NCBI RefSeq assembly: GCF_004324835.1
Contig: NW_021163190.1
Coordinates: 319,242-375,850 of the forward strand
From: Dendronephthya gigantea
Lineage: Eukaryota
DNA length: 56,609 bases
Direction of reading: 5' to 3'
A program made the translations under genes and the position numbers. The notes under the pieces are model-generated. The model ran no database searches. It was not told the origin of the DNA and saw nothing but the letters and a program-made list of their open reading frames with translations. Shown here piece by piece: positions 3,449 through 55,280 of the stretch. Position 1 is the first letter of the stretch, and every line of letters starts with the position of its first letter.

Positions 3449-6400
3449 TCACCTTTTCGGCCGACATTTAACCATTTTCTTAATGCCTTTCGTCTTTTTT
3501 GTCACACGTTTGGCCGCTTCTTTTGTCACCTCAACTTGTTTGGCGGCTTTCTCTTTTGATTTTTCCGTATCTTCCTCAACTTGTGGGGTGCTGTCTGAAG
3601 TCTTCATCGACTGTCTTTGCGTTTTAACTTTATTCATCAACTCGTACTGTTTCCGCATCGTTTGAAAAAACTGTAATTTCCGAGAAACGAAGAACGCTTC
3701 GTCGACATCTGGTCCCATTATCCAAGCATAATGATTTTCGAGTTTCTCCAAAACTTTTTTCTTGTTCTTTGTCTTCCAAGGCGTCTTTTCTTCCTCGATA
3801 CTTTCCTTGACTTGGGCAATTCGCCCTTGTAAAATTTCTGTCCATTCAGCTAAAGAAAGTTCTTCTTTCTGCTGCGTCTCTTTCCCCGGTGACGTGGAGC
3901 GCGCAATCTCCAGGGGTTGAATCTCGTGGAGCTGGGGGTCATTTTCCTGGCCATTTTTGTCGTAGGTTTTTTCTTCCCAGGGTTGAGTTGGGCTTGGTTT
4001 TCTCACCGAGGGTTGAATATCGTGGGGGTTTTTCTCCGAGGGACTTAACACTGGGGAGTTAGGATCTGCTGTTGTTATTATGATACGCGAATTACTGTCT
4101 TTTGTGACGAGAAGCAAGTTATTAAGATCCTTAGGCGGACATATCGATGTCTGTGTTGTCGTTTTGGGCACGTCATCAGTAGTGAAATCGCCATCTTGAA
4201 TTCCGCCTTCTTCCGACAATTTCCGACGTTTGTACTGCTCCGAAACAAGTTTCGTAGAATCATGGAACTTGTACGATTTCTGACCCGAGCTTTTTCGCTT
4301 TCGATTTTCGTCGCCGGATTCTCGGTTTTCCTCGGCCAAAAATCCCGTCTCTAATTCTTTCCAGGAATTTCGCCTGATGTCAGGAGAGACAGTTGAATTT
4401 TCACTACAACTATCCTTTGTCGCGTTACTCTGCTCAAGTTTCAGCGAATAAGTCTCCCACTGCTGCGATACAGGTTTCTTATCACGTGAGCCGACTATGC
4501 TGTTCACGTGAGCTTCGGACTTTGCTCCCTTGGGTGTTGCATCCTTTTTGACAACGCTAAAATGAAGTACATTCAAATCATCGCCGAGCTCGGGACTCTC
4601 CGTCTTGTGTATTACATCATCTTCTTCGGGTATGACGATGTATTTTATACCAGAGTCCTTTGCAGGTTTTTCTGAGCCCGCACTCCCGCATTGCAGCAGT
4701 TGCTTCAATTCGTTGTCCAAACCAATGACCTGAGGTTTTAGCAAATTTTTCAATTCACTTTTCGAGCCCAAAGACTCCTGTTTCAGCGGTTGCTTGACCT
4801 CCGGTGACTTCTTCACACCGACCACGATTCCGGTCGGTTTTGGACCAACTTTAGGTAGTTTCACGACGGTCTGGTTGCTGTCGGTTCCAGGCTTCTCAGT
4901 GAACTCGGTGTCATATTTGCGACATAAAAGTTCGTCACGTGGCATTGTCTTCAAAGGCTTGCTGTCATCCAGGCAGTCTTGAATACTCGATTTAAATTTT
5001 TCAACAAATTCGTTCTTGGTAATGCAATTCTCTCGGTTTTTTAATCCGTGTGACGAATATCTCGGTTCATAGGTAAGACTCCTAGATCGTTCACTTTTGA
5101 ATTCCGGCCTGCTTTCCGTCCGATCATATTCCGAAAGAGATCGTATCAACTTCGGCATGCCTTCGTAGTTTCTCGTCGGCTTTTGGTATTCTCCAGAGTT
5201 TACAGAACCGCTCCTTTCCGGGAAGGACTGGCGACTGGAAGAAATGTCCATTCTCTGATCGAAACTCAGGCTTCCATCATTGGCGTGGTTCTTGGAAACA
5301 TTTGACAACATTCTGCGAATTTTTCTCGCAGCATCCTGGAGAGAATTCCCAGCGATTTCTGCGGATCCCGCGACAAAATACTCCGATTTATCATCAAGAC
5401 ACCTCTTAAGTCCCCTGCTCTCATCCGACAACAACTGCTCACTCATGATGGCACTCTGTGTACCTGAATGTCCCGCACTTTCCCGCTCGTATAGAACAGA
5501 CCGATAACTCGTGCTCAGCCCATTCCCCCCATGCTCGCGGTTCGTTCCCAAGCCATTCTGCTTGTAGTTCGACGTGGTCACCTCTTGACTATCATTCGTA
5601 TTATTGTTGAAATCATAGGAATCTCTTCTGACCCTACTCGGCCCAGTTTCATCAATCGTCTTACGGCCGAGTTTTTCGCTTTCTAACCGAACGGACTGTT
5701 CCCCGGGTGCTTTAACCCCGGTAATAACACAGGCACTTTCACCATCGCTATTACGAGATGGATTTAAATCCACATTCTCCCGTAGAAAATCGTCGCTACC
5801 TCCATCTATTCTGTAAACCGGACTGGCAGCTGTGAAAACATCTCCATTTTCGTCGCTGGAAAGCGGTGAAGATATCTTCAATCCTTCGTCTTCCGAATCT
5901 GATATGACCACAACGGTTGGTGAACTACGACGCTTTTTTCTCCGTTGCGCCTTTCGCTGTTCAATAATGTCCGCAACTTTCATAGCTAACAAAGTCGAAT
6001 TCTTCACATCACCGGCATTTAGTCCCTTCGAATTAGGTTCCTTCGAATTTGGTCCCCCCGAATAAGGTTCCCTTGAAACAGGTTCCTTCGAATTCGTTTC
6101 CCCTGAATAAGGTTCCCTCGAAATAGGTTCCTTCCAAATAGGTTCTTTCGAAATAGGTTCCTTCGAATTTAGTTCCTCCGAATTAGGTTCCTTCGAGTTT
6201 AGTCCCTTCGAATTTGGTCCCTTCGAATAAAGTTCCTTTAAGTTCTTTGGTGCCTCGACATTTCGCACCACGGAGCAAAGTTTCTCGATAGATTGACTTG
6301 ATGCTCTTGTGTACCCGGCATTTGTGTCCTCGGAGTTTCGTACTACGGGATTGTGTCCCTCGGTAGCAGATGTTCTTATCTCGGTATTTCTTGTATTTGA

Positions 6401-6691
6401 ACTATATTTCGCGTAGGTCCAATCTTCCCGGGAGGTGTAAGTGCCGGTAGTAGAAGTTTCAGAATATTGTGAGCCAACGTGACCGGTACTATATCTCCTC
6501 ATATCACTGGTGGGTTGAATATTTGCCACATATTTCCCCGCTTGGATTGTGGACTGGGGTTTCGAGGTGAGGGTTTGGCCTATGGGTTGTGAGTGTGTCT
6601 CGCGATGGGGTAGAGTTTGGCCTATGGGTTGTGGGTGTGTCTCGCGATGGGGTAGAGTTTGGCCTATGGGTTGTGGGTGTGTCTCGCGACG
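3449..6691 (-). CDS. Large single-exon gene, 3' part (frame A). Low-complexity Ser/Lys/Glu-rich protein with (NSKEP)n repeats, a lysine-rich C-terminus and a predicted helical C-terminal segment. Function unknown.
   Basis: 1026-codon open frame in AT-rich DNA. The frame stays open upstream of the listed GTG 'start', through the 42-bp repeats, reading PHRETHPQPIGQTL repeats, up to the 1-nt deletion at ~6690. Confidence 0.55.
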   Translation of the reverse strand, partial: RRETHPQPIGQTLPHRETHPQPIGQTLPHRETHSQPIGQTLTSKPQSTIQAGKYVANIQPTSDMRRYSTGHVGSQYSETSTTGTYTSREDWTYAKYSSNTRNTEIRTSATEGHNPVVRNSEDTNAGYTRASSQSIEKLCSVVRNVEAPKNLKELYSKGPNSKGLNSKEPNSEELNSKEPISKEPIWKEPISREPYSGETNSKEPVSREPYSGGPNSKEPNSKGLNAGDVKNSTLLAMKVADIIEQRKAQRRKKRRSSPTVVVISDSEDEGLKISSPLSSDENGDVFTAASPVYRIDGGSDDFLRENVDLNPSRNSDGESACVITGVKAPGEQSVRLESEKLGRKTIDETGPSRVRRDSYDFNNNTNDSQEVTTSNYKQNGLGTNREHGGNGLSTSYRSVLYERESAGHSGTQSAIMSEQLLSDESRGLKRCLDDKSEYFVAGSAEIAGNSLQDAARKIRRMLSNVSKNHANDGSLSFDQRMDISSSRQSFPERSGSVNSGEYQKPTRNYEGMPKLIRSLSEYDRTESRPEFKSERSRSLTYEPRYSSHGLKNRENCITKNEFVEKFKSSIQDCLDDSKPLKTMPRDELLCRKYDTEFTEKPGTDSNQTVVKLPKVGPKPTGIVVGVKKSPEVKQPLKQESLGSKSELKNLLKPQVIGLDNELKQLLQCGSAGSEKPAKDSGIKYIVIPEEDDVIHKTESPELGDDLNVLHFSVVKKDATPKGAKSEAHVNSIVGSRDKKPVSQQWETYSLKLEQSNATKDSCSENSTVSPDIRRNSWKELETGFLAEENRESGDENRKRKSSGQKSYKFHDSTKLVSEQYKRRKLSEEGGIQDGDFTTDDVPKTTTQTSICPPKDLNNLLLVTKDSNSRIIITTADPNSPVLSPSEKNPHDIQPSVRKPSPTQPWEEKTYDKNGQENDPQLHEIQPLEIARSTSPGKETQQKEELSLAEWTEILQGRIAQVKESIEEEKTPWKTKNKKKVLEKLENHYAWIMGPDVDEAFFVSRKLQFFQTMRKQYELMNKVKTQRQSMKTSDSTPQVEEDTEKSKEKAAKQVEVTKEAAKRVTKKTKGIKKMVKCRPKR
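6000..6245 (-). repeat. 15-nt coding tandem repeat (ggttccttcgaatta; about 16 copies) encoding (NSKEP)n-like pentapeptides inside the large gene
   Basis: Direct observation. The period is a multiple of 3 and preserves the frame. Confidence 0.85.
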
Positions 6692-6740
6692 GGTAGAGTT
6701 TGGCCTATGGGTTGTGGGTGTGTCTCGCGATGGGGTGGAT
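6574..6740 (-). repeat. 42-bp coding minisatellite, 4 units (tttggcctatgggttgtgggtgtgtctcgcgatggggtagag). The third unit is 41 bp.
   Basis: Unit starts at 6574, 6616, 6658 and 6699. The unit at 6658..6698 has gcgacgggtag instead of gcgatggggtag. Confidence 0.9.
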
Positions 6741-7800
6741 TTTCAACCATTTCATTTCGGTGGACGAGACCTGGTCGTTCATGCGAACCGGTGGACAATG
6801 ACCGATGGCGGAGTACCTCCAGATTATGATTAGAGGCCAGTGGCTGGTGTGCGGGTTGTTCTTGCCCGGAAGCAGGTGGATACCATTCCCTTGCAGCACG
6901 ATCGTGACTTTGGCGCCAAACTTTTAGATGAAAGTCCCTTGAGAATCTATCTGTGGAAGACGGCATGGATAACTGACGCGCGTATTGTCGAGCTCTTGCG
7001 CCGTTTTCCGAGTACGGTACGACGTTCTGACGAAGTTGGATACCGCTTTCCGATTGTTGGCCGATACTTTGCCGATGTTGTGTTAGATCTTGCGTGCCTA
7101 GTACGATGTTTTCTTGATACTGAACGGCGTTCTTCGGGTGCTGTACGATGTTCTGCCGAAGTGGGACGACGTTTTCCGGATGGGACCGAAATGTGCCGGT
7201 GGAGTTTCGCCTTATCGTTGCTTCCTGCGTGCGTGGCGATAGATTCGCTGCGTGTCGAGGGTATTGCATTTGCATATTGTGCGCTTTGGATATCGTAGGA
7301 GGAATTGGACGGCCATTGTAAAAGGGGGGAGAGGGAACATTTGTTTTTCCCGTTTGAGGGGAGATAACCCGCTGTTCTGTTGAATAACGGCTTGGTGTGT
7401 GAATCAACGCTGGAGGGGACCTTTGTACGGTCGGATAATGTTGCGTAGTTGCTGCCCGTTGGTTGGAATACCCGGTATCGAACCTTTCCAGGGACAAATT
7501 TCCGACGGGGTATCGTCTCTGACGAGGACGTCCGGTGGGATATTTCCTCCCGGTAGGGGAACTATTTTCGACAAGGTGCGTTTCCCCGGTATGTCGTTTT
7601 CCCCCGGTAGGGTTTGTTTCCCCGCTACGTACTTTTTCGCCGGATTTCTTAGGAACAGATGAGACCGTGACGATTTTCGGCATGGAAGGATGGTCGAAGA
7701 CGAGTCCTTGTATTTCTTTGCCATCTGGTTGCTTCCTTGATCGGCATAAAACAACGCTTTTTGATTTCCGTTGGATATTCGCTTCACCGTTCATGTCTGA
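6664..7800 (-). CDS. Same gene, 5' part (frame B), ending in ...ENPPHRETHPQPIGQTLP then a frameshift and stop. Strong 3' splice site ccccattttattttcag immediately before ACATGAACGG at ~7800.
   Basis: 387-codon ORF, Pro/Gln/Ser/Thr-rich. Its repeat peptide is identical to the one read in frame A downstream of the deletion. Confidence 0.5.
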   Translation of the reverse strand, partial: SDMNGEANIQRKSKSVVLCRSRKQPDGKEIQGLVFDHPSMPKIVTVSSVPKKSGEKVRSGETNPTGGKRHTGETHLVENSSPTGRKYPTGRPRQRRYPVGNLSLERFDTGYSNQRAATTQHYPTVQRSPPALIHTPSRYSTEQRVISPQTGKTNVPSPPFYNGRPIPPTISKAHNMQMQYPRHAANLSPRTQEATIRRNSTGTFRSHPENVVPLRQNIVQHPKNAVQYQENIVLGTQDLTQHRQSIGQQSESGIQLRQNVVPYSENGARARQYARQLSMPSSTDRFSRDFHLKVWRQSHDRAAREWYPPASGQEQPAHQPLASNHNLEVLRHRSLSTGSHERPGLVHRNEMVENPPHRETHPQPIGQTLPVARHTHNP

Positions 7801-7887
7801 AAATAAAATGGGGAAAAATTTTCGCAAATTTTGATAAATTATGATAATATTAGAAGACTTTAAATTATAGTGCTTTCAATGATAGCG

Positions 7888-8048
7888 TGGGTCTCCACCG
7901 CAGAGAAATACTTCGCTAGCGAAATATTCGCATATTTTCTTTAGAATTTTGACGGAATAACTACATTAGTTCAGTTTAACTCTATGCATTTCAAATGAAA
8001 ATATGCAAATATTTCGCTAGCAACTATTCGCTGGAAGTGGAAATCCAG
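7888..8048. mobile_element. Divergent member of the Tourist-like MITE family (gggtctccaccgcagagaaat...ggaagtggaaatccagcc)
   Basis: Terminal inverted repeats (TIRs). Related to 46610..46778, 35172..35339 and 27756..27921. Confidence 0.5.
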
Positions 8049-8809
8049 CCTTAAGTCTCAAAATTGTTTCGAAGTTACTCAGATGATCTCGACGAAGCGA
8101 ATTTGTAACGTTTGTTAGATGAGGATTTTACATTAATGTGGTTCAGATCTCAGTTTAACTACTACTTTTATTACCATCGAGGGAACATCGACCAAGAGAG
8201 AAATTTTAGGCTTGCATTTATTAGAATTGATGTCATCGATGTCATAATAGAAATGACTTGAAATTTGCATAGCGGAAAAAATTCGTCGGGATGGCTACGC
8301 CATTGCAAAGAAGGTAGTTTTCATCTCGTTTTTGTATCATTTGCGAGAAGAATTTTCAATGCTTCCGTCAAGTAAACTTCTATCACGTTGAATACTTTGA
8401 AATCATCTAGTTCGGTTTATAAATTTCAAAAATTTGTATGCGCGACGGAGAATATAATCTTAACTGCCTGAAACTCGCATAAAAAACGAACTTGAAGATC
8501 TTTGCGAGACGCAAGATCGATATCAAATGGATTTGAAGCCATCTCAATTTAGATAGACAAAGATTGACTCTCAGACACTCAGACTCCAGACATGCTTCCA
8601 ATAGCAATATTATTATTTAATTACAGAGTGCTTGAACAGTACCCTAAGAACGAACAGACGTTTTTGAGACGGGAACATCGATTCGGCGCCAGAATAAATT
8701 GCTTCGCGCGCTATTTCAATTGTTTACATAATATATACCTGCATATCGTGTAGACATCACACTTAAAATATTTGGATGTCAGGATATATTTCAGGTATCC
8801 ATTTTGTTT

Positions 8810-8956
8810 AAGCCCGTTTTCCATTAGGCGAATTTATTCGCGCGAACAGATAAAGAAGCGGTTCTACTTTTTCGCGGCGAGTTTCTTCGCAAACCAATCA
8901 CATCACCGGATTTCAGATACCGGTTATTTATTCGCTTATAGTGGAAAACGGGCTTT
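8810..8956. mobile_element. MITE with TIR aagcccgttttccattaggcgaatttattcgcgcgaa
   Basis: TIRs seen directly. Paralogous copy at 16129..16268 with a truncated right TIR. Confidence 0.55.
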
Positions 8957-9017
8957 AAACTTGTTTATGTATCGTCGTACAAATGTTTCAATGCTGGAAA
9001 ATTTAACTAAAGGCCTA

Positions 9018-9275
9018 ATTGTGAAGTGCCGAAAATGATAATCGATTTACCCTCGCCTATTCCCGGCATTACCATCCTATACACATTAACTATGCTCGCT
9101 CTTGTCAGCTACCTCTGTAGCTCAGCGGCAAGAGCATTGCACCGGCATCGCAAAAGCGTAGGTTCGATTTGTCCCGGAGGACCGATAGTTGACTCATTTT
9201 TCCATCAACTGTTCCTGGCTTGAATTTGAAGTATGTATAATTCCACTCGAAATTAAGACCCTTTAAAAAACCTCT
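9018..9275 (+). mobile_element. tRNA-like SINE-type element. It has an A-box-like TAGCTCAGCGG and a B-box-like GGTTCGATTTGTCC, and folds as a degenerate cloverleaf.
   Basis: D-arm GCTC/AGCGGCAA/GAGC. Acceptor CCTCTG pairs with CGGAGG. T-loop TTCGATT, but only 3 of 5 T-stem pairs and no U33. A second copy lies inverted at 20510..20772. Absent from the paralogous position in block 2. Confidence 0.45.
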
Positions 9276-10227
9276 AAAGGCCTAATCCCAACACGGTTGA
9301 TAGAAATGTGAAATAGAAAATTCCGTACAAAGAATGCTGACCAAATATACCAAGACAATTGTCAATATCACTAAGATTATAAACTCACAACCGGCAATAC
9401 TTCATTGAGACAACAACACCTACATGGCGCAGGTTAATATCAAAACGATGTCAGATTTCTACAACATCTTTGGTCGAGAGCTTCTTGGAGTAAAGGAATT
9501 TGGTTTGTCGACGTGTACGTTTAAAATAATCACAAGTCGCAAACATTGATATGTTAATATACTGTAAAAGTTTCCGGTATGGTACCAGAATACTCTAAAT
9601 GATTATACACAATGGACAATGAAGTCTTTGGAGTTTCTTCACGCGCCGTGGAGCGAGGTAAGTGTGTGATTATTTAGTTCATTTATCAAAGCTTTCCCGT
9701 CCGGAAATGTGGCTACTTCCATGGCAAGTATAGAAAACATATTCTGATAAACACAATAATACCATCTGCAATTCTTATTCGTCCATAAATATACTATTCT
9801 TTCCGAAAAAGCGAACATATTTCAGGTAGCCCCATTGTAGAGTGATTAGACTATACTCTCTCTATACTATCAAGAGCATTTAAATCAGAGATCGTAGCTA
9901 AAAAAATCACACAATTTTAGAGAAATCCTTCAAAGAGGAACTTCTGGTTTCGAGTGATCTGTGACGTAAAGACCGTAATGACAAAAAAAATACAAAAAAA
10001 ATATTTAAATCATCAAATATTTTCGGTCAAACACTCGAAGATCGTTTAACCAGTTTATATACCTTGCATTATGTTGTGAACGAAGTTTTAAACAGTATTT
10101 AATGGTTGCTAAACACCAAACGACAAAGGTTTTTTCAAAATATAATCGGGATATAATGAATACAGAAGTATATAGCTTCGATTCAAGGGTAGGTACAGTT
10201 GCTTACTTGCTAAATCAAGTGTATTGT

Positions 10228-10598
10228 GAGATCAGTGGTGCTATATCCAGTTATTATTGGATCAGTGGTACTATATCCAGTTATTATGAGATCAGTGGTG
10301 CTATATCCAGTTATTATGAGATCAGTGGTGCTATATCCAGTTATTATGAGATCAGTGGTGCTATATCCAGTTATGAGATCAGTGGTGCTTTATCCAGTTA
10401 TTATGAGATCAGTGATGCTATATCCAGTTATTATGAGATCAGTGGTGCTATATCCAGTTATTATGAGATCAGTGGTGCTATATCCAGTTATTATGAGATC
10501 AGTGATGCTATATCCAGTTATTATGAGATCAGTGGTGCTATATCCAGTTATTATGAGATCAGTGGTGCTATGTCCAGTGTGATATGAGATCAGTGGAA
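10228..10598 (+). repeat. 30-bp satellite (gagatcagtggtgctatatccagttattat), about 12 copies
   Basis: Direct observation. The long ORFs here are artefacts of the repeat. Confidence 0.9.
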
Positions 10599-11204
10599 TG
10601 GTTTTTCCCGCGCGCTGCAGGCTGTTTTGAAATACACTAAACTAAAAAAACACTAAACTTTTTAAGTTCGTAATCATTTGTACAAGCGCTGGTCAATGGA
10701 ACATATTTTGCCAAAGGTCCTCCTTTTTCTATACTTGTCATTGTATTAAGGCAAAGTTGTTCTCGTCTTTCATTCAATCCTCCTTATAAGAGTAGCCTGG
10801 TAAAATAATTCTCAGAGCTCGTTTTCAGTGTACTCGCTCTAACTCTTTAGCAAAATATAAAGGTAAAGCGTGGTGCCATACAACGCAACCGGGAACGCCA
10901 CCTCGTCGTAAAGAAACGGATGAATACATATTAAACGTTCAGAGGTCTTGGATACAACTGACTCTATATGATCATTCCATTTAAGATCACTTTGAATTCT
11001 TGCATTTCTTGGCATTGGCTTCATAAAATTACCGAAGCCAAGAATTGATTGAATCCAAACCGAACTGAATCTTTGAATTGCTGCCTTTTGTAGTATATTC
11101 ATATGTTGATACATCATCTACAAACTTCCAAATACCCATTTCGCGTGTTTTACATCAAGGTCATTTATCATGACCAAAAACAAAATTGGTCCAAGCTTAG
11201 TCAC

Positions 11205-11447
11205 TCGGGCTTGTTTGAAAGGCGTTTAGCTTAAACGGTGGATAAGCCAAAGTTTCAACTGAAATACTCTCATACATCTTGCGAATTACTAAGCCCGCAT
11301 CTAATGCATTTAATATGTACTTCCATTGAAAATTAAACTATTTACATCGAAATATTTCAGCTCAGTTGTTCAATAAATAGATAATTTGGTTTTCCATTTT
11401 GAACTTATCCACCGTTTAAGCTAAACGCATTTCGAACAACCGGCCCC
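11205..11447. mobile_element. MITE family with TIR GGGGCCGGTTGTATCAAGCCCGTTTAGCTTAAACGGTGGATAAG (degenerate copy)
   Basis: TIRs. Other copies at 18644, 30511, 43251, 43716, 44683 and 52438. Confidence 0.55.
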
Positions 11448-11821
11448 TGGGGTACGCCTACTTTCATTGGCAACCAATCCGAGATTTCTCCCCCAAGTTT
11501 AACGTGATGTCGGCGCTTAGTGAGGAGGTAACAGAGACAATCTAACACCTATGCCTAACAGCTTTGATATTAATAAATTATGCCCTATACGGTCGAACGC
11601 CTTTGCGAGATTATGCCATTTACCGCGATCCTATTTCATATAAACAACATCCTAAGCGACACAAGTAGAAATATATTTGTTTTGGTGACGAGACGGTCCA
11701 ATATATTACTTGCTTTAAATGCGTGGAATGAGGGTTGCTAGAATAGACTGGCGCTCTAGTTGCATCGCATTGTTTGGCCGAAGCGTCCAAAATACGCTCG
11801 TGAACGCGACTCTCGTTTCAT

Positions 11822-12330
11822 GAAGCAATGATACTGATAGTTGATGAAACTCTCATGTAAACTCTCGCTTGTCAACTCTCATGCAACTATTGTTCTCGTT
11901 TGATCAAGCAATGATAGTTGATGAAACTCTCATGTAAACTCTCGCTTGTCAACTCTCATGCAACTCTTGTTCTCTTTGATCAAGCGATGATAGTTGATGA
12001 AACTCTCATGTAAACTCTCGCTTGTAACTCTCATGCAACTCTTGTTCTCGTTTGATCAAGCAATGATAGTTGATGAAACTCTCATGTAAACTCTCGCTTG
12101 TCAACTCTCATGTAACTCTTGTTCTCGTTTGATCAAGCAATGATAGTTGATGAAACTCTCATGTAAACTCTCGCTTGTCAACTCTCATGCAACTCTTGTT
12201 CTACTTTGATCAAGCAATGATAGTTGATGAAACTCTCATGTAAACTCTCGCTTGTCAACTCTCATGCAACTCTTGTTCTACTTTGATCAAGCAATGATAG
12301 TTGATGAAACTCTCATAAACTCTCGTAAAT
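11822..12330 (-). repeat. 77-bp satellite, inverted array
   Basis: Reverse complement of the unit at 2952..3440. Confidence 0.9.
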
Positions 12331-12339
12331 TCTAGGGTT

Positions 12340-14590
12340 TAAAGGGTCTTAATTTCGAGTGGAATTTTACACACTTCAAATTGTCAATAGTCAATATTTT
12401 TTTAATATACTAGGCAGCAAAAATGTGATTAATTGCTTTGTAAAAGGTTAATTTTTATGGTGAACGCAAAATGATTTCCACGACATCGTTTTTAAATTTG
12501 ATTTCATCCCGTTCGCTAACTACAGGGTGTCTCAAAAAAAACGCAACACTTAAATATGCAAGAACATTAATACAGCTCTAAAGCGCAATAGATAAGCACC
12601 TCTGGGAATTGAAAAGGCCTCTTAATCCTTCATTTAAAATGCTAAAAGTCATTTTAGCTGAAGTGTAGTGCAAACCCGAACAATATTATAATATTCTTGC
12701 ATATTTAAGTGTTGCGTTTTCTTTGAGACATCCTGACATCCTGTTTATCGTAACTTTTCAGCCAGTTTAAGCCTCTGCATTAAATAAATACTTTTCAAAA
12801 AAAAAACATTTACCCCGCCGAAAATCAAAATTAATCCATGCTGGGACTAAGAGCGCTATATTGTGGCTCTAGCCTGAAAATTTACAGGGCGTATAAAAAA
12901 AACTGCAACCCTAATAATTCCAAGGGGGCGACGATTTTTTTTTGCTGAATAAAAGCGAACAGATTTGAATATTAATTGTGGTTGCAGTTTTTTTATATAT
13001 ATTCTTCCATACCGGCTTCTGGGTAAGTCTACACTGACATTCAAATGTATTACGAAATAAACTAGTTCTTTATTTGTTACATAAATTTTCAATGAAAATT
13101 TAATCGTTCACGTCAACCCGTCACTTCCACCGACGAATTAGTTGGATAATTGAAATAATAATGAACTGCAATTAGATGCTAATTGCTCGCAATAAAGTTT
13201 GTGAAATGATTCATTTCTTCGCAACGTTCGGCGGTCGACAGCGAAAAGTAAGTTGAAAGCGAATATCTCCATTCAATATCATCTCTTTGTACTGCCGAAG
13301 ATTTTTAATACGATTTCACCTAAGTTTTCCTTGCAAGGCAAGTTTTCCTTGCCAAGTTTTATTTGCTCTCTCGTACGCGATAAACATGTTTTTCTTTGAC
13401 AAGAAGTCTTGTTCAAAAGTTTTCCTTGACAAGGAGGCTTGTTCAAAAGCTAGTCATGACTTCAAAAGCTTTTCAACAAGGAAAAATGCTCGCGTGCACG
13501 GTCGTCAAGGAAAACTTGACAAGGAATTGCGCAGTAGGGAACAACAATCTTCCAGCCAATCGAGCAGGTTTTTAAAGTTTTATATCATCTTTATTCAAGA
13601 AAATTTTTCGCCTACACACGAGGAAATAAAACTCGGCAAGGAAAGGTGGAAAACTTGTTCGCCATATACACCAGCAAGTGAACTGGTCAGGAAAACTTGT
13701 TAAGGAAAACTTGGCAGTCTGCGTATGGGGCTTTATCAAAATATTCAGGCCTACAATGTAACGTTTAATCTTGCCGCAACCGTACATGATGGTCGTACTA
13801 AACATTAAAGAAAAGCCGGCTCGCACGAAAAAAACGTCACTGCCAGGGAATTGGTGTCGTCAACCATTCATTTAAATGCATTGAAATGGTGTTTCGAGGA
13901 CAAGCTCACTATCATCTGAGACATCTGAGGTATAGACCTCGCGAGGTTGTTAGCTCAGCAAGTTACTCTCGTGTGCGGATAGTTTTTCGTGAGGAATTCA
14001 CCTCGAGAGGCAAGTTTCTCGCGTTTGTGGATAGATTTCGGGCGCACACTAGGCCAACTAGTGACACGACTCGTGTGCGCTGGCATTTAAGGCATCAGAT
14101 CATAATTGACTAACCTTCTGGCTAATTGTGGTATACTTGTCCTCGCTATTTCGTACTCTTTTATCTCCAATCTGCAAAAAACATTAAAAAATATGTCACG
14201 TACAATTTCCCATTCGTCATTTTTGATGGAGTATCGTCTACGCTTTCTGTCGGTGGAGTGAAGGTTCTCAGAACCCCATCACCAGAATGGTATCAGATGA
14301 CGTCGAGAAAAATTATATGAGCCTTCTGGTATTCGCCTTGTCTAGGGTATATTTGTATAATGAAGAAGGTTGGATTCCTTGGTATGTGAAAAGATAATTT
14401 AGAATAGCTTAAGGCGTTTAAAAAGGCTGCTTTCGCAGGAAGTTTTGCAAGAAGTGTAGAGTCCTTCCAACGAACCGGTTAGAGAAAATGTACAGACGAG
14501 TTTATACCTAAGACAACCTAATCAAACTGAGGTGTTTTGACAGAGGTGTTTGTTCAAAACTGACCTTTAAAGTATTGTTCGTCGGTTAAA
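12340..14590 (+). repeat. About 2.2-kb dispersed repeat, copy A (non-coding, family unknown)
   Basis: Colinear with 20800..21800 (copy B, internally deleted) and 23870..26575 (copy C, 5'-truncated, with extra insertions). Confidence 0.75.
12523..12735. mobile_element. TA-flanked MITE with TIR CAGGGTGTCTCAAAAAAAACGCAAC
   Basis: Absent from the paralogous site in copy B (~21000). Confidence 0.6.
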
Positions 14591-14651
14591 TTTGGATAAA
14601 GTACGATAATATATTAGAAAACTTTATATTATAGTGCTTCCAATGATGAGT

Positions 14652-14814
14652 GGATCTCCACCGCAGAGAAATAGTTCGCTAGCGAAATATTCCCATATTT
14701 TCTTTAGAATTTTCACGGAATAACTACATTAGTTCAGTTTGGCTCAATTCATTTTAAAAGAAAATATACAAATATTTTGCCAGCGAACTATTCGCTGGAA
14801 GTGGAAATCCAGCC
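14652..14814. mobile_element. Paralogous copy of the MITE at 7888..8048
   Basis: Block duplication. Confidence 0.5.
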
Positions 14815-15611
14815 CTAAGTCTCAAAATTGTCTCCAAGTTGCTCAGATGATCTCGACGAAGCGAATTTGTAACGTTTGTTAGATGAGGTTTTACATTAAT
14901 GTGGTTCAGATCTCAGTTAAACTACTACTATTTTTACCATCGAGGGAACATCGACCAATCAAATGCGAGAAATCTTTCGGAATAACCAATCAAAAACGCG
15001 ATACGTCAGCGAAGGCTAGTTCCGATAAGGCTGGTACATGTTCAGTGGCGCAGCTAGCCCGACAATTTATTCATGCTATGCTAATATTTTGGTGTTCATT
15101 GACTGTAAAAACAATGCATTTCTAAAGAAATGAATATTGAAAAAAAAACGTCAGGCTGGGCCGGCTGGCTACGCCACTGTAATATGTGAAATTCAGAAAG
15201 ACCCCGAAATTTTACGCTTGCATTTATTAGAATTGATGCCATCGTTATAATAGAAATGACTTGAAATGTGCATAGCGGGAAAAATTCGTCGGGCTGGCTA
15301 CGCCATGGCAAAGAAGGTAGTTTTCATCTCGCTTTTGTGCCATTTGCGAGAAGAATTTTCAATGCTTCCGTCAAGTAAACCTATATCATCACGTTGAATA
15401 CTTTGAAATTATCTAGTTCGGTTTATAAATTTCAAAAATTTGTATGCGCGACGGAGAATATAAATTGCCTGAAACTCGCGTAAAAAACGAACTTGAAGAT
15501 CTTTGCAAGACGCAAGACCGATATCAAATGGATTTGAAGCCATCTCAATTTAGGTAGACAAAGATTGACTCTCAGACTACAGACATACTTCCAATAGCTA
15601 TAGCAATATTA

Positions 15612-15855
15612 GGGCCATTTATACGAGTGAAAATAAGCCGCGGCCTAAATAAGCCGCGGCTTAAATACGTCGCAAAGAACTCGTATAAACGGTCTATTTT
15701 CAATTAGCCGCGGCTTATTTAAGCCTAGGCTTCAACCCTGGGCTTATTTTAGCCGCGGCTTGCGAACAAAATGACCGTTTATACGGGCCCTTCACGACTT
15801 ATTTAAGCCGCGGCTTATTTAGACCGCGGCTTATTTTCACTCGTATAAATGGCCC
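15612..15855. mobile_element. MITE with TIR GGGCCATTTATACGAGTGAAAATAAGCCGCGG and TA (or TATTA) TSD
   Basis: Perfect 32-bp TIRs. Empty site in the block 1 paralogue at ~8608 (gcaatattattatt). Confidence 0.8.
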
Positions 15856-16128
15856 TATTATTATGTAATCACAAAGTACTTGAACAGTACCTTATAAGAA
15901 CGAATAGAGACGTTTTTGAGAAGGCAACATCGGCGCCAGAATAAATTGATTCGCGCGCTATTTTAATTGTTTATATAACTATAACTGCATATCGTGTAGA
16001 CATCACACTTGAAATATTTCTAAAAGTATGCGTTTAAAAAACATCTGAAATATTATGACTGCTTAACCTTGAAGGCTCTTCACTTAATGTCAGGATATAT
16101 TTGGTATCCATTTTGTTCAAGCCCGTTT

Positions 16129-16268
16129 TCCACTAGGCAAATTTATTCGCGCGAACAGATAAAGAAGCGGTTCTACTTTTTCGCGGCGAATTTCTTCACA
16201 AACCAATCAAATCGCTGGATTTCAGATAACGCTTCGCGTCGCGCGAATAAGCTCGCCTAGTGGAAAAC
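16129..16268. mobile_element. Paralogous copy of the MITE at 8810..8956 (right TIR truncated)
   Basis: Block duplication. Confidence 0.5.
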
Positions 16269-16407
16269 TGATTTAAACTTGTGTTACGCAAGGCTATATT
16301 GTGAAACTGAACATTATTGAACTTTAGTAAAACCATTGTAAAGATCTCCTACCTCGTGCATAGAAGAAAATAAAACTATAATTATAACACTTGTTTATGA
16401 CTTAAGG

Positions 16408-16602
16408 CCCTGTTACACGGTGCGATTTTTCTTGCAACTTGCAATGCAATTCTTCTTTTGAGAGATGTAAATTTAGCAACTACAGAACTTTTGTATTTAT
16501 TATTTTCTTACACTAACATTTTGAAGCCTTTTCACCAATTTAGATCTCTTAAAAGTAGAATTGCATTGCAAGTTGCAAGAAAAATTGCACCGTGTAACAT
16601 GG
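16408..16602. mobile_element. MITE with TIR CCCTGTTACACGGTG...TTTTGAGAGATGTAAAT
   Basis: Long TIRs. Related copies at 23530..23760 and 27075..27305. Confidence 0.6.
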
Positions 16603-18057
16603 CTTTTATGTATCGTCGTACATGACTCACTGGTAGAAAATTTCACTAACGCCTGTAAGACCCATCTTTTAAAAAATAAACGAATTCCAAGCCACTTATT
16701 GTGGTCGATTTTTCCGAAGCCAATATACCATATTTATCGTATATCTCAATCGGAAACAATGTCTAGACGCAATGTATATCTTGAGAAATATTCGCGCAAA
16801 TCTATACGCCGGTAGCTTCAAATACAGAAGGTAATCATACTTCTTCAAATCTTTATCATCGCTTTCGGGTTATTTCTTCCTCGGAGAAAACAATCTAGCA
16901 AAATCTAGGCAAAGCTAAAAGGGTTTAAAAAAATTCCTGCCGGATCCGACGTTTGTAGCTATATTTGCTCTGCATTAAAAATCACGGATGCATATACAAT
17001 CATGATAAACATTATAAATTTTTCCTCAATCAAAAAGAGCCATTTTGTTTGCCATTAATTGTCTGTTCCCGATCTGAATAAAGAATTTTTTTACGTTTTA
17101 GACAAAGCATACATGTAATATAGGAGGCAATTTGGAAATCACGGATACCATATTTAAAAAGACGGTCATGCATTAATCACAACAACGAAATGAAAGACCA
17201 CTGTTATTGCATTGTATATACTGAATTGTATTCGCGTTTCGAAGAGGCTTTTCCTTATCAAATTCCATAATGCCTTTTGCAAAATGGCGTACCTAATTAG
17301 CTACTTTCCCCATTTACAAATGATAACAGAATTGCGTGTGGAATTGTTGAATGAAGCAGGCATATTGTATATATTATCTTTGAGATTTGGTTTTGTAACA
17401 GTTTTGCTTCTTTTTAAGCGAACTAACTCGTATAATTAACATAGTTAAAATTACATGTATGCACTACAATCATTGCAACCTATTGCGACAATTATTGCGA
17501 CTGATATATAAAAAATTCCTCACAAAAAATGTTGACCAAATATACCTAGACAATTGGCAATATCACTAGAATTATAAACTCAAAAAATACAATACTTCAT
17601 TGAAACAACAACACTTACATCCTGCACGATAATATCGAAACGAGGTCAGAATTCTACAACATCTTTGGTCGAGAACTTTTTGGAGTAAAGGAACTTGGTT
17701 TGTCGACGAGTACGCGTAACAATAATCACAATTTACAAGTCGCAAGCATTGATGTGTTAATATATTCTAAAAGCTTCCGGTATGGTACCAAAACACTCTA
17801 ATTGATTATACACAATGGACAATGAAGTCTTTGGAGTTTCTTCACGCGCCGTGGAGCAAGGTACGTGTGTGATTATTTAGTTCATTTATCAAAGCTTTCC
17901 TGTCCGGAAATGTGGCTACTTCCATGGCAAGTATAGAAAACATATTCTGATAAGCACAATAATACCATGTGCGATTCTTATTCGTCCGTAAATATACTAT
18001 TCTTTTCGAAAAAGCGAACATATTTCAGGTAGCCGCATTGTAAAGTGTTAGACTATA

Positions 18058-18272
18058 CAGGGTGAGTCAAAAAAAAGTCCCCCCTATTGAAATGAAGCCT
18101 TTGTTGATTTGAATGCATGATCAACGCAGTAGTGTGTAAATAGCATAGTTATTAGGTTGAGGCATTCAAATAAAGCGTCTTGCTTTCAATTGGGTTTATC
18201 ATAATATTAAGGCAATCAGATTCTAACAAAGGCTTGATTTCAATAGAGAGGACTTTTTTCTGACTCACCCTG
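18058..18272. mobile_element. TA-flanked MITE with TIR CAGGGTGAGTCAAAAAAA
   Basis: TA at 18056-57 and 18273-74. Absent from the block 1 paralogue (~9850). Confidence 0.65.
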
Positions 18273-18643
18273 TAGTTATCTTCAGCATCAGACTGTGAAA
18301 TCTCACTCGCATGGTCAACCAACCAGTAGGAACAAAGTTTGTGGTCACCATTCAAAACATTTCACTCAGAGATCATTGCTAAAAAAATCACACAATTTTA
18401 GAGAAATCCTTCAAAGAGGAACTTCTGGTTTCGAGTGATCTGTGACGTAAAACCGTAATGACAAAAAAAATGAAAAAAATTTTAAATCATCAAATATTTT
18501 CGCCCAAACACTCGAAGATCGTTTAAACTAGTTTATATACCTTGCATTAGGTTGTGAACGAAGTTTTGAACAGTATTTAATGGTTGCTAAACACCAAACG
18601 ACAAGGGTTTCTTCAAAATATAATCGGGATTTAATGAATACAG

Positions 18644-18883
18644 GAGCCGGTTGTATCACGCCCGTTTAGCTTAAACGGCGGATAAGTCAAAATTAAATAA
18701 CACTTTTACATCTCTCTTGAATGAGTTAACTTGAATATTATGCACTGAATATGTAGTTGTAAACAGTATCTTTGTATTAAGGTTGAAAACATTTAGTTTG
18801 CTTGTTGAATAAAACGATAGACTTGCTTTCTATTTTGAACTTATCCGCCGTTTAAGCTAAACGGGCTTGATACAACCAGGCCC
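18644..18883. mobile_element. GGCCGGTTGTATC-TIR MITE
   Basis: Empty site present in the block 1 paralogue (aatacag|aagtatatagc at ~10158). Confidence 0.7.
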
Positions 18884-18952
18884 AGAAGTATATAGCTTCC
18901 AAGCCTTCCATTCAAGGTGGGTAGGTAAAGTTGCTATATCAAGTGTATTGTG

Positions 18953-19625
18953 AAATCTGTGGTGCTATACCCAGTTATTATGAGATCAGTGGTGCTATAT
19001 CAAATTATTATTAGATCAGTGGTGCTATATCCAGTTATTATTGGATCAGTGGTGCTATGTTCAGTTATTATGTGATCAGTGGTGCTATATCAAATTATTA
19101 TTAGATCAGTGGTGCTATATTCAGTTATTATGAGATCAGTGGTGCTATATCCAGTTATTATTGGATCAGTGGTGCTATGTTCAGTTATTATGTGATCAGT
19201 GGTGCTATATCAAATTATTATTAGATCAGTGGTGCTATATTCAGTTATTATGAGATCAGTGGTGCTATATCCAGTTATTATTGGATCAGTGGTGCTATGT
19301 TCAGTTATTATGTGATCAGTGGTGCTATATCAAATTATTATTAGATCAGTGGTGCTATATTCAGTTATTATGAGATCAGTGGTGCTATAACTAGTTATTA
19401 TGAGATCAGCGGTGCAAAACTAGTTATTATGAGATCAGTGGTGCTATATCCAGTTATTTTGAGATCAGTGGTGGTATATCCCGTTATTATAAGATCAGTG
19501 GTACTATTTCTAGTTATTATGAGATCAGTGGTGCTATATACAGTTATTATGAAATCAGTGGTGTTATATCCAGTTATTATGAGATCAGTGGTGCTATATA
19601 CAGTGCAATATGAGATCAGTGGAAT
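18953..19625 (+). repeat. 30-bp satellite, paralogous array of about 22 copies
   Basis: Same unit and same flanks as 10228..10598. Confidence 0.9.
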
Positions 19626-19889
19626 GGTTTTTTCCCGCGCGCTGCAGGCTCAACGTTTGTCTGCTCACGGACGGCCTGTTTTGAAATTTACAATGCAGAA
19701 CACAAATATATACAACTTAAAAAACACTAAACTATGCCCATAAGCAACATTGTAAGCGACACAAGTATAAATATATTTGTTTTGGTGGCGAGACGGTCCA
19801 GTATATTACTTGCTTTAAATGCGTGGAAATGAGTGTGCTACAGTTCTAGAGTGCTAGTCAAATAGACTGGCGCTCTAGTTGAACGCGAC

Positions 19890-20085
19890 TCTCGTTTGAT
19901 CAAGCAATGATAGTAGACGAAACTCTCATGTAAACTCTCGCTTGTCAACTCTCATGCAACTCTTGTTCTCGTTTGATCAAGCAATGATAGTTGATGAAAC
20001 TCTCATGTAAACTCTCGCTTGTCAACTCTTGTGCAACTCTTGTTCTCGTTTGATCAAGCAATGATAGTTGATGAAACCATGGTTT
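19890..20085 (-). repeat. 77-bp satellite, paralogous shorter array
   Basis: Same unit, preceded by the same ~130-bp unique segment as 11640..11770. Confidence 0.9.
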
Positions 20086-20509
20086 GGCAAACTGAATCGC
20101 GAAGAAATTTAACATACCTAACTCCTATACCAAATAAAGTCCTTGGCTCCAACGTCAGTCCACGATTAACACGAACTTCAACGAAAGTCGTTGCCCGGCT
20201 GATTACCGCGCAAACATGCACACTGCGATATTTATGTCATTTGAATTACAAAGTGTTGACCGGTTTGGCATTAAATAGGCGAATTTCAAAGACAGTTTTG
20301 ATACTTTCCGTCAAGACAAACACCTCACACCACGCATTGTCAATAAGGACAATGTACATTTCATTAAGAGCCTAATGGTGCATGAAATTAATATTATGTT
20401 AATCCCCCAAAGCAAACGGCTTTGAAAATGTTGAGTTTTTTGTGTGTCGAGGTGATTTTCCAAAATCTTATGTTTGCATAAGCAGAAATCACCAGATTAT
20501 GGAAAGATA

Positions 20510-20772
20510 TTTCGTATATTCTTGGGTTTAAAGGGCCTTAATTTCGAGTGGAATAATTTATACACACTTAAAATTCTAGCCAGGAACAGTTGAAGGAGAA
20601 ATGAGTCAACTATAAGTCCTCCGGGACAAATCGAACCTACGCTATTGCGATGCCGGTGCAATGCTCTTGCCGCTGAGCTACAGAGGTAGCTGACAAGAGC
20701 GAGCATAGTTAATGTGTATAGGATGGTAATGCCGGGAATAGGCGAGGGTAAATCGATTATGATTTTTGGCAC
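20510..20772 (-). mobile_element. Second copy of the tRNA-like SINE-type element
   Basis: About 95% identical reverse complement of 9018..9275. Confidence 0.45.
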
Positions 20773-20799
20773 TTCACTCGATGCAGGTAAATTCTAGAG

Positions 20800-21800
20800 G
20801 TTTAAAGGGCCTTAATTTCGAGTGGAATTAATTATACGCACTTCAAATTCGTATAGTCAATGTTTTTTTAATATACTAGACAGCAAGAATGTGATTAATT
20901 GCTTTGTAAAAGGGTTAATTTCTATGCTGAACGCGAAATAATTTTCACGACATCATTTTTAAATATGATTTCATCCCGTCCGTAAACTATATCGTAACTT
21001 TTCGGCCAGTTTAGGCCTCTGCATTAAATAAATACTTTAAAAAAAAAAAAACACGCCGCCGACAATTGCTGGGAACAAAATCACCCACAAATTTATGCTT
21101 ACAAAGAGCGCTATATGAAGGCTCTAACCCGAAAATTTACAGGGTGTATCAAAAAACTACAAGCCTAATAATTTCAAGGCGCCAACGATATTTTGTTGTT
21201 GAATAGAAGCGAACATATAAATGAATATTAGGTGTGGTTTTTTAACACCCTTTATATTCTTCCATCGCCTCTGGGTAAGTCTATGCTGACATTCAAATAA
21301 GACCTAGTATATTACGAAACAAACTAGTCCTTTATCATATATTATCATAAATTTTCAATGAAAATTTAATCGTTCACGTCAACCCGTCAATTCCACCGAC
21401 GAATTAGTTGGATAATTGAAATAATAATGAACTGCAATTAGATACTAATTGCTTGCATTAAAGAGATTTCTCACAACGTTTGCCGGTCAACAACGAACAG
21501 TCAAGTTCAAAGCGAATATCTTCGTACAATAATCACTTTGTTGTACCGAAATTCTTTGAAATCAACTTCACCATATTAGATGTATGTTATCGAAATGTTC
21601 CCGCCTACAATGTGAGGTTTAATCTTGCCGAAACGGTAACATTAAAGGCCTAATTTTTTCTTCAGATTTTCTTTGATTTGCAGTCCATCAAATATCAGAT
21701 CATATTCGACTAACCTTTTCCTTAATTGCGGTAAACTCGCTCTTGTTTTTTCCTTGATTTTCTTCTCCAATCTGCAAAAGTCATAAAAAATCAGTGTCAC
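20800..21800 (+). repeat. Dispersed repeat copy B
   Basis: See copy A. Confidence 0.7.
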
Positions 21801-22184
21801 GTAAACTCCGTGTTTTTGTTATTTTTATTAATGCTTAACGTAGATAATTCTTACGCTAATACTCTCTTGTGATAAATAAAGATTCTCTCTATTCCCCAAG
21901 ATGACGATGAGTGAAGTTATATGTTATTATTCGTATATCAAATACTCGAGTAGTTTTTTTTGTGGAATGCTTGGAATGCAGGAAAAAAGTAGTCGAAGAG
22001 TCGCTCAACGCGTGTTACAATGCTTCTTTTACAAAGTTTTGCTGCGGGTATAGGACCCTTCTAATGAAAATACACAAACTAGGTTATGTATTAAAACAAC
22101 TTCTTCGATTTTAAGCTTATTTATTATCCCCGCCTTCGTTTAATATCAGAGAGATATTTACCCTCATATTTGGCGCAAAGCGTG

Positions 22185-22615
22185 AAAATAACCTTTTTTA
22201 TCCCTCTGAAACGTCGAAAATGACCCTTTTTATCCCTCTGGAACGTCGAAAATAACCTTTTTTATCCCTCTAGGACGTCGAAAATAATCTTTTTTCCCTC
22301 TAAAACGTCGAAAATAGCTTTTTATCCCTCTGGAACGTCGAAAATAACCTTTTTTATCTCTCTAGAACGTCGAAAATAACCTTTTTTATCCCTCTAGAAC
22401 GTCGAAAATAACCTTTTTTCCCTCTAGAAGGTCGAAAATAACCTTTTTATCCCTCTAGAACGTCGAAAATAACCTTTTTTCCCTCTAGAACGTCGAAAAT
22501 AACCTTTTTTCCCTCTGGAACGTCGAAAATAACCTTTTTATCCCTCTGGAACGTCGAAAATAATCTCTTTTATCCCTCTGGAACGTCTGAAATGACCTTT
22601 TCTATCCCTCAGACT
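22185..22615 (+). repeat. Satellite of about 31 bp (tatccctctggaacgtcgaaaataaccttttt), about 13 copies
   Basis: Direct observation. Confidence 0.9.
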
Positions 22616-22619
22616 AGAC

Positions 22620-22990
22620 AATTCCTAAATTAGGGGCCGATTACATGGGTCATTTTCCACCCCGGGGCTGAGAACTTCAGAATAACAAATTCGCATTTTG
22701 TTTTCAGTCACGTGCGTAAATGGCACAACTACGCATGCTCGAATATCTTCAGCCCTACGTTGAAACGATTACATAACAAATTTTCAGCCCCGGGGCTAGT
22801 TTCACCCTAGGGTTGAGATTTCAGCTCGGGTGGCTCAGGCAGGGATGAAATTTCAACCCTGGGGCTGAAAATTTGTCATTTTTTTGAGGCTGTCACCCCC
22901 CCTGCCAAAATTTAGCAATATGGCGCGCGCGATATTGCTAAATTTTGGCAGGGGGTGACTGCCTCAAAAAAATGCACTTACTAAGTGACG
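22620..22990. repeat. Palindrome-rich segment. Three CAGCCCCGGGGCTG-type mini-palindromes, followed by a near-perfect ~93-bp palindrome centred on ggcgcgcgcg (~22880..22972).
   Basis: Arms gaggctgtcaccccccctgccaaaatttagcaatat / atattgctaaattttggcagggggtgactgcctc. Confidence 0.8.
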
Positions 22991-23394
22991 AATCATGACG
23001 AATCACGCTTACGAAAAAAGTACAGGAGTTCTACTTCTGTTAGGTATTCTGTGCCTGAAGGGAGGATATGAATTCAAGACTGTCGCTGATGTTTGCAATG
23101 GTGGAAAATTTTAATAAATTCAAATTGAAATGAGTATATTAAAGCATATCACAAATATAGTTTAGTGCGAGCTTGAATTTGTACTTTTTTTTCTTTGTAC
23201 ATTTCATTAAAATTTGAATCTAAACCTTAAAATGGTTGTAATGAGTTTAGGTTGGGCAAATCTTTAAACAACCTTATCAGGGATGATTATGTTGTTTAAA
23301 GGAATAATTTTAGCAAAAATTACCCGAATTTTGGTACAATTTGATGAAAAAATTTGCTAAACTCAACTTCTCTAGACTTAAATACCTCTAGAAG

Positions 23395-23512
23395 GCTAGC
23401 TGCCCCCGCTCGTATCACTCCCCCCCCCGTATCACTCCCCCCCCCGTATCACTCCCCCCGTATCACTCCCCCCCCGTATCACTCCCCCCCGTATCACTCC
23501 CTCAAGCGTTCC
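23395..23512 (+). repeat. C-rich 15-17-bp tandem repeat (CCCCCCCGTATCACT)n, about 7 copies
   Basis: Direct observation. The complementary strand carries G7 runs. Confidence 0.9.
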
Positions 23513-23529
23513 ACGCTTATGGGTAATTA

Positions 23530-23760: not shown

Positions 23761-23796
23761 TAAAGCACGACTCATTTCTTTATCATTAGCATTATA

Positions 23797-55265: not shown

Positions 55266-55280
55266 GTATTGTACTGTATG

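Follow-up and report, generated by a model that had tools for sequence, protein, structure and literature searches.

The question raised by this locus is whether two adjacent and similar blocks of DNA, found in a 56,609-nt stretch of the genome of the octocoral Dendronephthya gigantea (assembly GCF_004324835.1, contig NW_021163190.1, positions 319,242 to 375,850 of the forward strand; hereafter, the window), are the outcome of a tandem duplication, and whether the sequences present in just one of the two blocks can be read as transposable elements that moved afterwards. Both ideas had been put forward in an initial annotation of the window. The analysis reported here indicates that the two blocks very probably represent a real, fairly old tandem duplication of roughly 10–12 kb of non-coding DNA, located immediately 5' of a single-copy gene. 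The differences existing between the two copies are the product of ordinary genome turnover, i.e., insertions of small transposons, deletions, and changes in repeat length. The duplication looks neutral, no function of its own being indicated.

The window was aligned against itself by means of BLAST and of a long-gap global alignment. The BLAST matches joining the two copies, with E-values from 0 to 1e-90 and 78–96% identity, are far above chance and form a single colinear head-to-tail chain, so that the proposal of two colinear tandem blocks was borne out by the pairwise alignment. On the basis of the global alignment and of the junction sequences, copy A spans 7826..14587 (6,762 bp); copy B, delimited by the global alignment and colinear with copy A over its full length, spans 14588..26563 (11,976 bp). 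The limits assigned at first (7860..14590 and 14600..21800) are essentially right for copy A, apart from its true start, and wrong for copy B, from which no spacer separates copy A; likewise, a unit of about 6.7 kb describes copy A, copy B being 12 kb rather than 7.2 kb long. The last part of copy A (13170-14587) pairs with B 24706-26563, in aligned blocks of about 85–93% identity, and the right edge of copy B lies between 26563 and 26564. The stretch 21436-21828 of copy B shares only about 70–85% identity with the corresponding tail of copy A, with large gaps, and is a weaker, older paralogue of the copy tail and not the end of copy B.

At the three edges, the sequence passes from ...TTTTCGC to AAATTTTGATAAA, from ...GTCGGTT to AAATTTGGATAAAG and from ...GTCGGTT to CCATAATAAAC, respectively. 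The comparison of these junction sequences disclosed neither microhomology nor a repeat at 7826, at the spacer-free junction between 14587 and 14588, or at 26563. The nearest MITE (miniature inverted-repeat transposable element) common to both copies is located 63 bp inside the unit and has no partner at the far edge. Given that neither a repeat nor microhomology links the edges and the junction, the duplication is more likely to have arisen without homology, through end joining or a template switch during replication, than by unequal crossing-over between dispersed repeats, which was rejected as its origin.

The divergence between the blocks, to which the initial annotation had drawn attention, amounts to 8.05% substitutions (Kimura two-parameter distance, K2P, 8.55%) over 3,737 confidently aligned bp, with 162 transitions and 139 transversions, corresponding to about 4.3% per lineage; it varies only moderately (4.9–11.7%) from one aligned block to another. 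Moreover, the copies differ by more than 15 indels longer than 50 bp and nearly two-fold in length. These figures bear on the possibility that the tandem arrangement is an artefact of assembly, with two divergent haplotypes of what is a single-copy region joined end to end, in which case the empty sites described below would be allelic. A base-exact junction devoid of any spacer would also be expected from a stacking error of this kind, and marine invertebrates can show very high heterozygosity. However, the window contains no N gap, the 8% of substitutions amounts to roughly one quarter, or even less, of the divergence apparent in this region between the window and the ortholog of another species, and the number of large indels, together with the nearly two-fold difference in length, far exceeds usual allelic variation. 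The stacking of haplotypes is thus improbable.

As for the content of the two blocks, no Pfam match was obtained for the 10 scanned of the 14 non-repeat open reading frames (ORFs) of at least 75 amino acids lying within them, so that a duplicated gene or a transposable element protein inside the blocks has no support and was dropped. The duplicated DNA is non-coding. The window has a G+C content of 38% and is dense in minisatellites and small transposons; no tRNA gene was detected in it by ARAGORN, and Rfam at gathering thresholds was also empty across its whole length.

In order to polarize the differences between the copies, an outgroup was used, namely the 5.8-kb Tara metagenome scaffold TARA_SAMEA6035503_METAG-scaffold_26903 (hereafter, L001), which encodes, as one exon, a protein (P0001) related to the product of the gene flanking copy A, and carries 1,468 bp of sequence upstream of it. 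The identity between L001 and the window is about 78% in the coding region and 62–89% upstream. L001 reaches only the first 2.6 kb of copy B, and the polarity calls drawn from it are limited to that part; they rest mainly on BLAST matches with the window, a three-way MAFFT alignment including L001 being unreliable at 50–60% identity (as an example, the MITE at 15612 was aligned spuriously). The sole figure taken from this three-way alignment is the 82–84% identity of B 14963-15027 given below. Copy A starts 31 nt upstream of the ATG of the gene (7794), and L001 1479-1399 matches window 7784-7866 without interruption from the gene into copy A, which indicates that the gene-proximal copy A retains the ancestral arrangement.

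The matches with L001 reveal that three segments found only in copy B are, at least in part, ancestral sequences lost from copy A. The first one (14971..15205, 235 bp) is entered for 57 bp by the match between L001 1345-1196 and B 14875-15027 (71% identity overall, E = 2e-18; 82–84% for L001 against B 14963-15027), so that at least 14971-15027 is ancestral and the absence of the segment from copy A is due to a deletion. The second one (16019..16083, 65 bp) is spanned by an unbroken match between L001 656-525 and B 15981-16117 (E = 2e-15). The third and longest one (16650..17497, 848 bp) is missing in copy A at the point where a SINE-like element (resembling a short interspersed nuclear element) now sits, and is ancestral on the basis of the match between L001 486-4 and B 16632-17161 (61.8% identity over 547 bp, E = 1.6e-23). 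No terminal inverted repeats (TIRs) were found at the ends of 14971-15205, of 16650-17497, or of the segment 10659-11639, present only in copy A.

The largest difference is the 3.27-kb stretch 21436..24705 of copy B, located between two old direct repeats, P1 (about 21101-21828) and P2 (about 23878-26205). The similarity of these repeats is about 78% between 21218-21570 and 24495-24854, and weaker beyond. Copy A shows about 88–91% identity with P1 on the left, as far as 13169, and with P2 on the right, starting at 13170. In a three-way alignment, eight of the nine informative sites within 13088-13169 group copy A with P1, and from 13178 on about 30 sites group it with P2, against about seven with P1. 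Copy A carries a single hybrid P1/P2 repeat whose switch point is near 13170-13178. Since P1 and P2 differ from each other more than copy A does from either, the pair is older than the split between A and B, and the hybrid repeat in A implies that 21436-24705 was lost from copy A by unequal recombination, rather than inserted in copy B. A formal fit is also given by a long terminal repeat (LTR)-type element having left a solo LTR in copy A; yet this reading was dropped, because the two gapped repeats continue through more than 1.4 kb of ordinary flanking sequence and show neither LTR ends nor a coding remnant. Overall, at least four large differences between the copies are losses from copy A totalling about 4.4 kb, the largest of which occurred through P1/P2 recombination.

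These losses are at odds with the version of events originally advanced, according to which a 6.7-kb unit was duplicated once and every difference between the copies is a later insertion of a transposable element. That version draws support from the several differences that are truly TIR-bounded insertions (described below), and to this extent the statement that the copies differ by discrete insertions stood; nevertheless, copy B reaches 26563, the three segments discussed above are ancestral according to L001, copy A is a P1/P2 recombinant, and about 1.1 kb of the differences comes from changes in minisatellites. Refuted in part by these findings, it is hardly credible as a whole. Its list of differences was also incomplete, having missed 14971-15205, 16019-16083, 16282-16604, 16650-17497, 20078-20786, 21436-24705, and the three minisatellites.

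The existence of P1 and P2 might in turn suggest that what was duplicated is a mobile element of large size or a satellite-like one, i.e., a macrosatellite or the tandem insertion of a large non-autonomous element, since the locus has been duplicated at least twice (first P1/P2, whose period is about 2.8 kb, and later the entire unit) in a window that is very rich in tandem repeats. The ends of the unit, however, show no terminal repeats, no target site duplication (TSD), and no coding capacity; no other copy of it exists in the remaining 38 kb of the window, and in L001 its first 1.5 kb corresponds to ordinary sequence flanking the gene upstream. An origin of this kind is therefore very improbable, and a tandem duplication of ordinary flanking DNA is preferred.

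The insertions proper are those in which inverted repeats fall exactly at the ends of the segment present in one copy, as is the case for 15612/15855, 18058/18272, 18644/18882, and 12523/12735; the TIR ends of these four MITEs agree within 1–3 bp with the coordinates first assigned to them. For three of them, the sister copy provides a clean empty site, and the TSD can be read directly: TATTA at 15612, CAG at 18644, and TA at 12523. The idea that MITEs moved after the duplication and that their TSDs can be read in this way thus applies to these three, and does not extend to the SINE-like element, to the MITE at 18058, or to the 1-kb segment of copy A.

The B-only MITE 15612..15855 (244 bp), of which the window contains a single copy, is bounded by a perfect TIR of 19 nt (GGGCCATTTATACGAGTGA), its arms measuring 95 nt with 89% complementarity. 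Its empty site in copy A, between 8607 and 8608, reads GCAA-TATTA-TTATT (8604-8617), and copy B reads GCAA-TATTA-element-TATTA-TTATG, in agreement with the empty site previously placed at about 8608. The simplest reading of the TSD is TATTA, one of the two alternatives initially offered; TA (the other one) and TTA are less simple, because each of them needs an extra slippage in the (TTA)n context. The corresponding interval of L001 measures 180 bp, versus 157 bp in A and 402 bp in B, and is too short to hold the MITE, which must have entered after the species split.

The B-only MITE 18644..18882 (239 bp; one nucleotide shorter than annotated) belongs to a family with six copies in the window, whose TIR (GGGCCGGTTGTATCA) starts with GGG and whose TSD is 3 bp long. 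The empty site in copy A is clean (AATA-CAG-AAGT at 10159-10169, with CAG at 10163-10165) and coincides with the one already recognized as aatacag-aagtat; copy B carries CAG on either side of the element. Each of the six copies diverges by 2.5–4.6% from the family consensus; the one at 18644-18882 diverges by 3.3%, and five of the six fall below the divergence of about 4.3% per lineage of the blocks, so that this element fits an insertion after the duplication. Three other copies form a local cluster within 1.7 kb (43251-43489, 43717-43955, and 44684-44922). A scan of public metagenomes with the TIR of the family gave zero matches.

The A-only MITE 12523..12745 consists of a 213-bp element (12523-12735) followed by a duplicated tip of 10 bp; its TIR is CAGGGTGTCTCAAAAAAA, its 47-nt arms are 94% complementary, and its TSD is TA. 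Its presence in one copy only, already proposed, was corroborated by a clean empty site in copy B, ACTA-TATCG, between 20989 and 20990. The B-only MITE 18058..18272 (215 bp; TIR CAGGGTGAGTCAAAAAAA), of the Tc1/mariner or Stowaway type, shares with it the TIR type CAGGGTG..TCAAAAAAA. It is TIR-bounded, flanked by TA on both sides, and limited to copy B, as had been suggested; its empty site, on the contrary, is untidy, the adjoining part of copy B having 81 further bp versus 19 bp in copy A. A further B-only segment (16282-16604, 323 bp) contains in its right-hand 203 bp (16404-16606) a MITE with 70-nt arms, 91% complementary, with related copies at 23513-23796 and 27067-27345. The segment is absent from copy A, and the interval of L001 between the BLAST anchors is 39 bp versus 515 bp in copy B, too short to contain it; hence, it entered after the species split.

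Other elements are common to both copies. The MITE 7889..8057 (B 14651-14821) has further copies at 27754-27921, 35171-35335, and 46604-46781, and the interval of L001 is far too short to hold it, which places its entry between the species split and the duplication. The interval of L001 is also too short for the shared MITE 8807-8958, which likewise entered after the species split. An inverted-repeat element is found at 13339..13713 in copy A and at 24853-25704 in copy B, where it is swollen by a 15-bp minisatellite (24984-25502); it is missing from the paralogue P1 (between 21570 and 21587), which provides an older empty site. Finally, a 533-bp element (23965..24497) with a 28-nt TIR and AT or TA as the TSD was inserted in P2 only. 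In terms of copies in the window, the 18644 family has six, the 16404 family at least three, the 7889 family five, and the 15612 element one.

The SINE-like retroposon found only in copy A (9021..9275, plus strand; initially 9018..9275) contains a tRNA-like core at 9111-9182, recognized in a relaxed Rfam search, where it scored 28 bits (E = 5.7e-4), the cut-off being 29. The core begins 90 nt inside the element and is not called as a tRNA by ARAGORN. A direct repeat of 11 bp, AAAGGCCTAAT, borders the element on either side (9009-9019 and 9276-9286). The core upholds the original description; no clean empty site for it was found in copy B, which has 848 other bases at that place. A second copy, 94% identical to the first and inverted (20521..20777, minus strand), sits at a non-orthologous place within the B-only block 20078-20786. 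A 5'-truncated tail fragment (12325..12382, minus strand; B 20787-20850) occurs in both copies and must therefore predate the duplication. The TSD and the truncated copy favour a retroposon dependent on a long interspersed nuclear element (LINE), as far as its sequence features tell. At the site of copy B orthologous to that of the element (16655-16680), a run of about 25 bp (GTAAGACCCATCTTTTAAAAAATAAAC) looks similar to the tail of the SINE (TTAAGACCCTTTAAAAAAC); this likeness may be due to chance in low-complexity sequence, or to a history of the site going beyond an insertion plus a deletion.

Among the remaining differences, the segment of about 980 bp limited to copy A (10659..11639), which had been reported as a segment of about 1 kb carrying a degenerate MITE, was indeed found; it has, however, neither a clean empty site nor a terminal TIR or TSD. 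The MITE inside it (about 11206-11449) is a degenerate relative of the 18644 family, with 36-nt arms at 11211-11246 and 11404-11439, and its 92-amino-acid ORF has no Pfam match. The B-only block 20078..20786 consists of 433 unclassified bases in addition to the inverted SINE-like copy. Three minisatellites also differ between the copies, their changes in copy number accounting for the above-mentioned 1.1 kb. The 30-bp array has 13 units in copy A (10208..10596) and 23 in copy B (18932-19622), the 77-bp array has 6.4 units in copy A (11835..12325) and 2.4 in copy B (19890-20077), and the 15-bp array has 34.6 units in copy B, the repeat finder reporting no such array in copy A.

Putting these data together, the unit before the duplication contained the P1/P2 pair, several MITEs, a truncated SINE tail, and the 30-bp and 77-bp minisatellites. 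After the duplication, and independently of each other, the copies went on changing: copy B gained at least three, and probably four, MITEs from at least four families, and might have gained the SINE-like copy embedded in its complex block; copy A gained one TA-type MITE and lost about 4.4 kb in four deletions, and might have acquired its SINE-like element, for which there is no clean empty site. Three minisatellites changed in length. Some points weigh against this reconstruction: the mechanism of the duplication is deduced solely from the lack of homology at the edges, and the junction between 14587 and 14588 rests on a single assembly. In addition, the coverage of L001 stops short of 10659-11639, 20078-20786, and 18273-18355, each of which may be an insertion or a deletion, and, at sites beyond the reach of L001 (18058, 18644, and 12523), a precise excision of the transposon from one copy is formally indistinguishable from an insertion into the other.

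The use of paralogous, or "related", empty sites is a standard method addressed to a known kind of event. It is known that BRAMI-1 has been confirmed against paralogues lacking the insertion (PMC3626606), and that the TSD of NuwaI has been established from paralogous empty sites (PMC4482050). Here, as in those studies, the paralogue without the element shows the target once, so that both the mobility and the TSD become legible. Differently from them, the copies compared here are adjacent and non-coding, within one 19-kb stretch, rather than dispersed paralogues or the outcome of a whole-genome duplication; moreover, the older paralogue P1 and the outgroup add two time layers.

The 239-bp family fits the NuwaI group of the PHIS (PIF/Harbinger-ISL2EU-Spy) superfamily, to judge from its TSD and termini. 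NuwaI elements, which have been reported from animals, including one anthozoan, have a CWG TSD and TIRs of 12–61 nt usually starting with GGG (PMC4482050). The flanks of the family fit CWG at 11 of the 12 ends and are identical on both sides in three of the six copies; its consensus starts with GGGCCGGTTGTATCAAGCCCGTTTAGC (GGG), and its TIR falls within 12–61 nt. On the other hand, the flanks differ at the middle base (CAG vs. CTG) in two of the six copies, and the placement derives from the TSD and TIR of non-autonomous copies rather than from a transposase phylogeny. No autonomous NuwaI-type element (DDE transposase, Myb/SANT ORF) is present in the window. The MITEs 12523-12735 and 18058-18272 resemble Stowaway-like (Tc1/mariner) MITEs in their TA flanks, CAGGGTG TIRs, length of about 215 bp, and long hairpin arms; since they share just a TIR of about 20 nt and not their interiors, they represent separate families. 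The window contains no autonomous partner for them. The SINE-like element resembles tRNA-derived SINEs in its tRNA-like segment, its A-box-like and B-box-like motifs, its TSD of 10–11 bp, and the 5'-truncated copy found elsewhere; it differs from them in the internal position of the tRNA-like part (90 nt from the 5' end), in its score (28 vs. 29 bits), and in having no clear A-rich or simple-repeat tail. The MITE types (Tc1/mariner-like with TA flanks, NuwaI-like with CWG flanks) and the tRNA-related retroposon are all of known kinds, their particular families being probably uncatalogued.

The gene flanking the duplication encodes an uncharacterised protein (3449..7794, minus strand), is single-copy, and is located outside the duplicated unit. 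Its long ORFs, on the minus strand, lie at 3449-6529 and 6664-7827. Among named proteins, the best relative of its product belongs to Paramuricea clavata (42% identity), whereas P0001 (62% identity) ranks first overall; the latter begins with MNGEA, on the basis of which the start codon was set at 7794, on the minus strand. An exact-protein look-up retrieved no record of the first ORF. The frame is broken at 6529-6664, in or beside a 42-bp (14-codon) coding tandem repeat (6573-6743), and the ortholog in L001 is a single exon without interruption or frame break; the break may reflect a short intron, a true frameshift, or a length of the repeat that was wrongly assembled.

A third array of the 77-bp repeat (2984-3439), inverted, begins 10 bp past the stop codon of this gene, and L001 harbors the repeat at the matching place (5723-5800) with 94–97% identity, versus about 78% in the coding sequence; conservation is thus much higher in the repeat than around it. 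Four AACTCT(C) sub-motifs are present in the unit. The RNA fold of neither strand was better than that of shuffled sequences (z = -1.1 and -0.8), and a scan of public metagenomes with the unit gave zero matches. A speculative reading would make the repeat, present at either flank of the gene, a regulatory or structural element under constraint rather than junk.

Other elements can be observed in the rest of the window. An apparently intact Ty1/copia element (46832-51506) has an ORF of 1,244 amino acids in which gag, integrase, and RVT_2 domains are recognized. Its LTRs, of 323 bp, share 99.4% identity, its TSD is the 5-bp TCGAG, and it looks young. It sits inside a 35-bp minisatellite (46153-46609 and 51507-51732), which is also host to the MITE 46604-46781. 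Just upstream of it, an ORF of 163 amino acids (45401-45892, minus strand) matches the Pfam family ALKBH8_N (E = 7e-6). A 114-bp tandem repeat forms four arrays in both orientations, at 29635-30241, 32097-32391, 32792-33216, and 55279-55486 (109-bp unit); the arrays are about 92–97% alike, and some dispersed element may contain this repeat in its interior.

The locus is a sound but ordinary example of its kind, and it opens no long-standing question. Its value is mainly for annotation, as several octocoral MITE families, probably uncatalogued, have their ends and target duplications defined here to the base; one of these families fits the NuwaI group, which has been little sampled. The locus also suggests caution, since a sequence found in just one member of a duplicate pair is as often the result of a deletion as of an insertion, so that an outgroup is needed before mobility is claimed. 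A bolder interpretation, which we regard as rather doubtful, is that the locus represents a natural time series with four dated layers (the species split, P1/P2, the A/B duplication, and the present), ordering at least five MITE families, including the NuwaI-type one with CWG targets, and, separately, that the 77-bp repeat may be constrained. If the time series were true, several families of DNA transposons would have been active in this octocoral lineage within the last 4% or so of divergence, and some of them may still be mobile.

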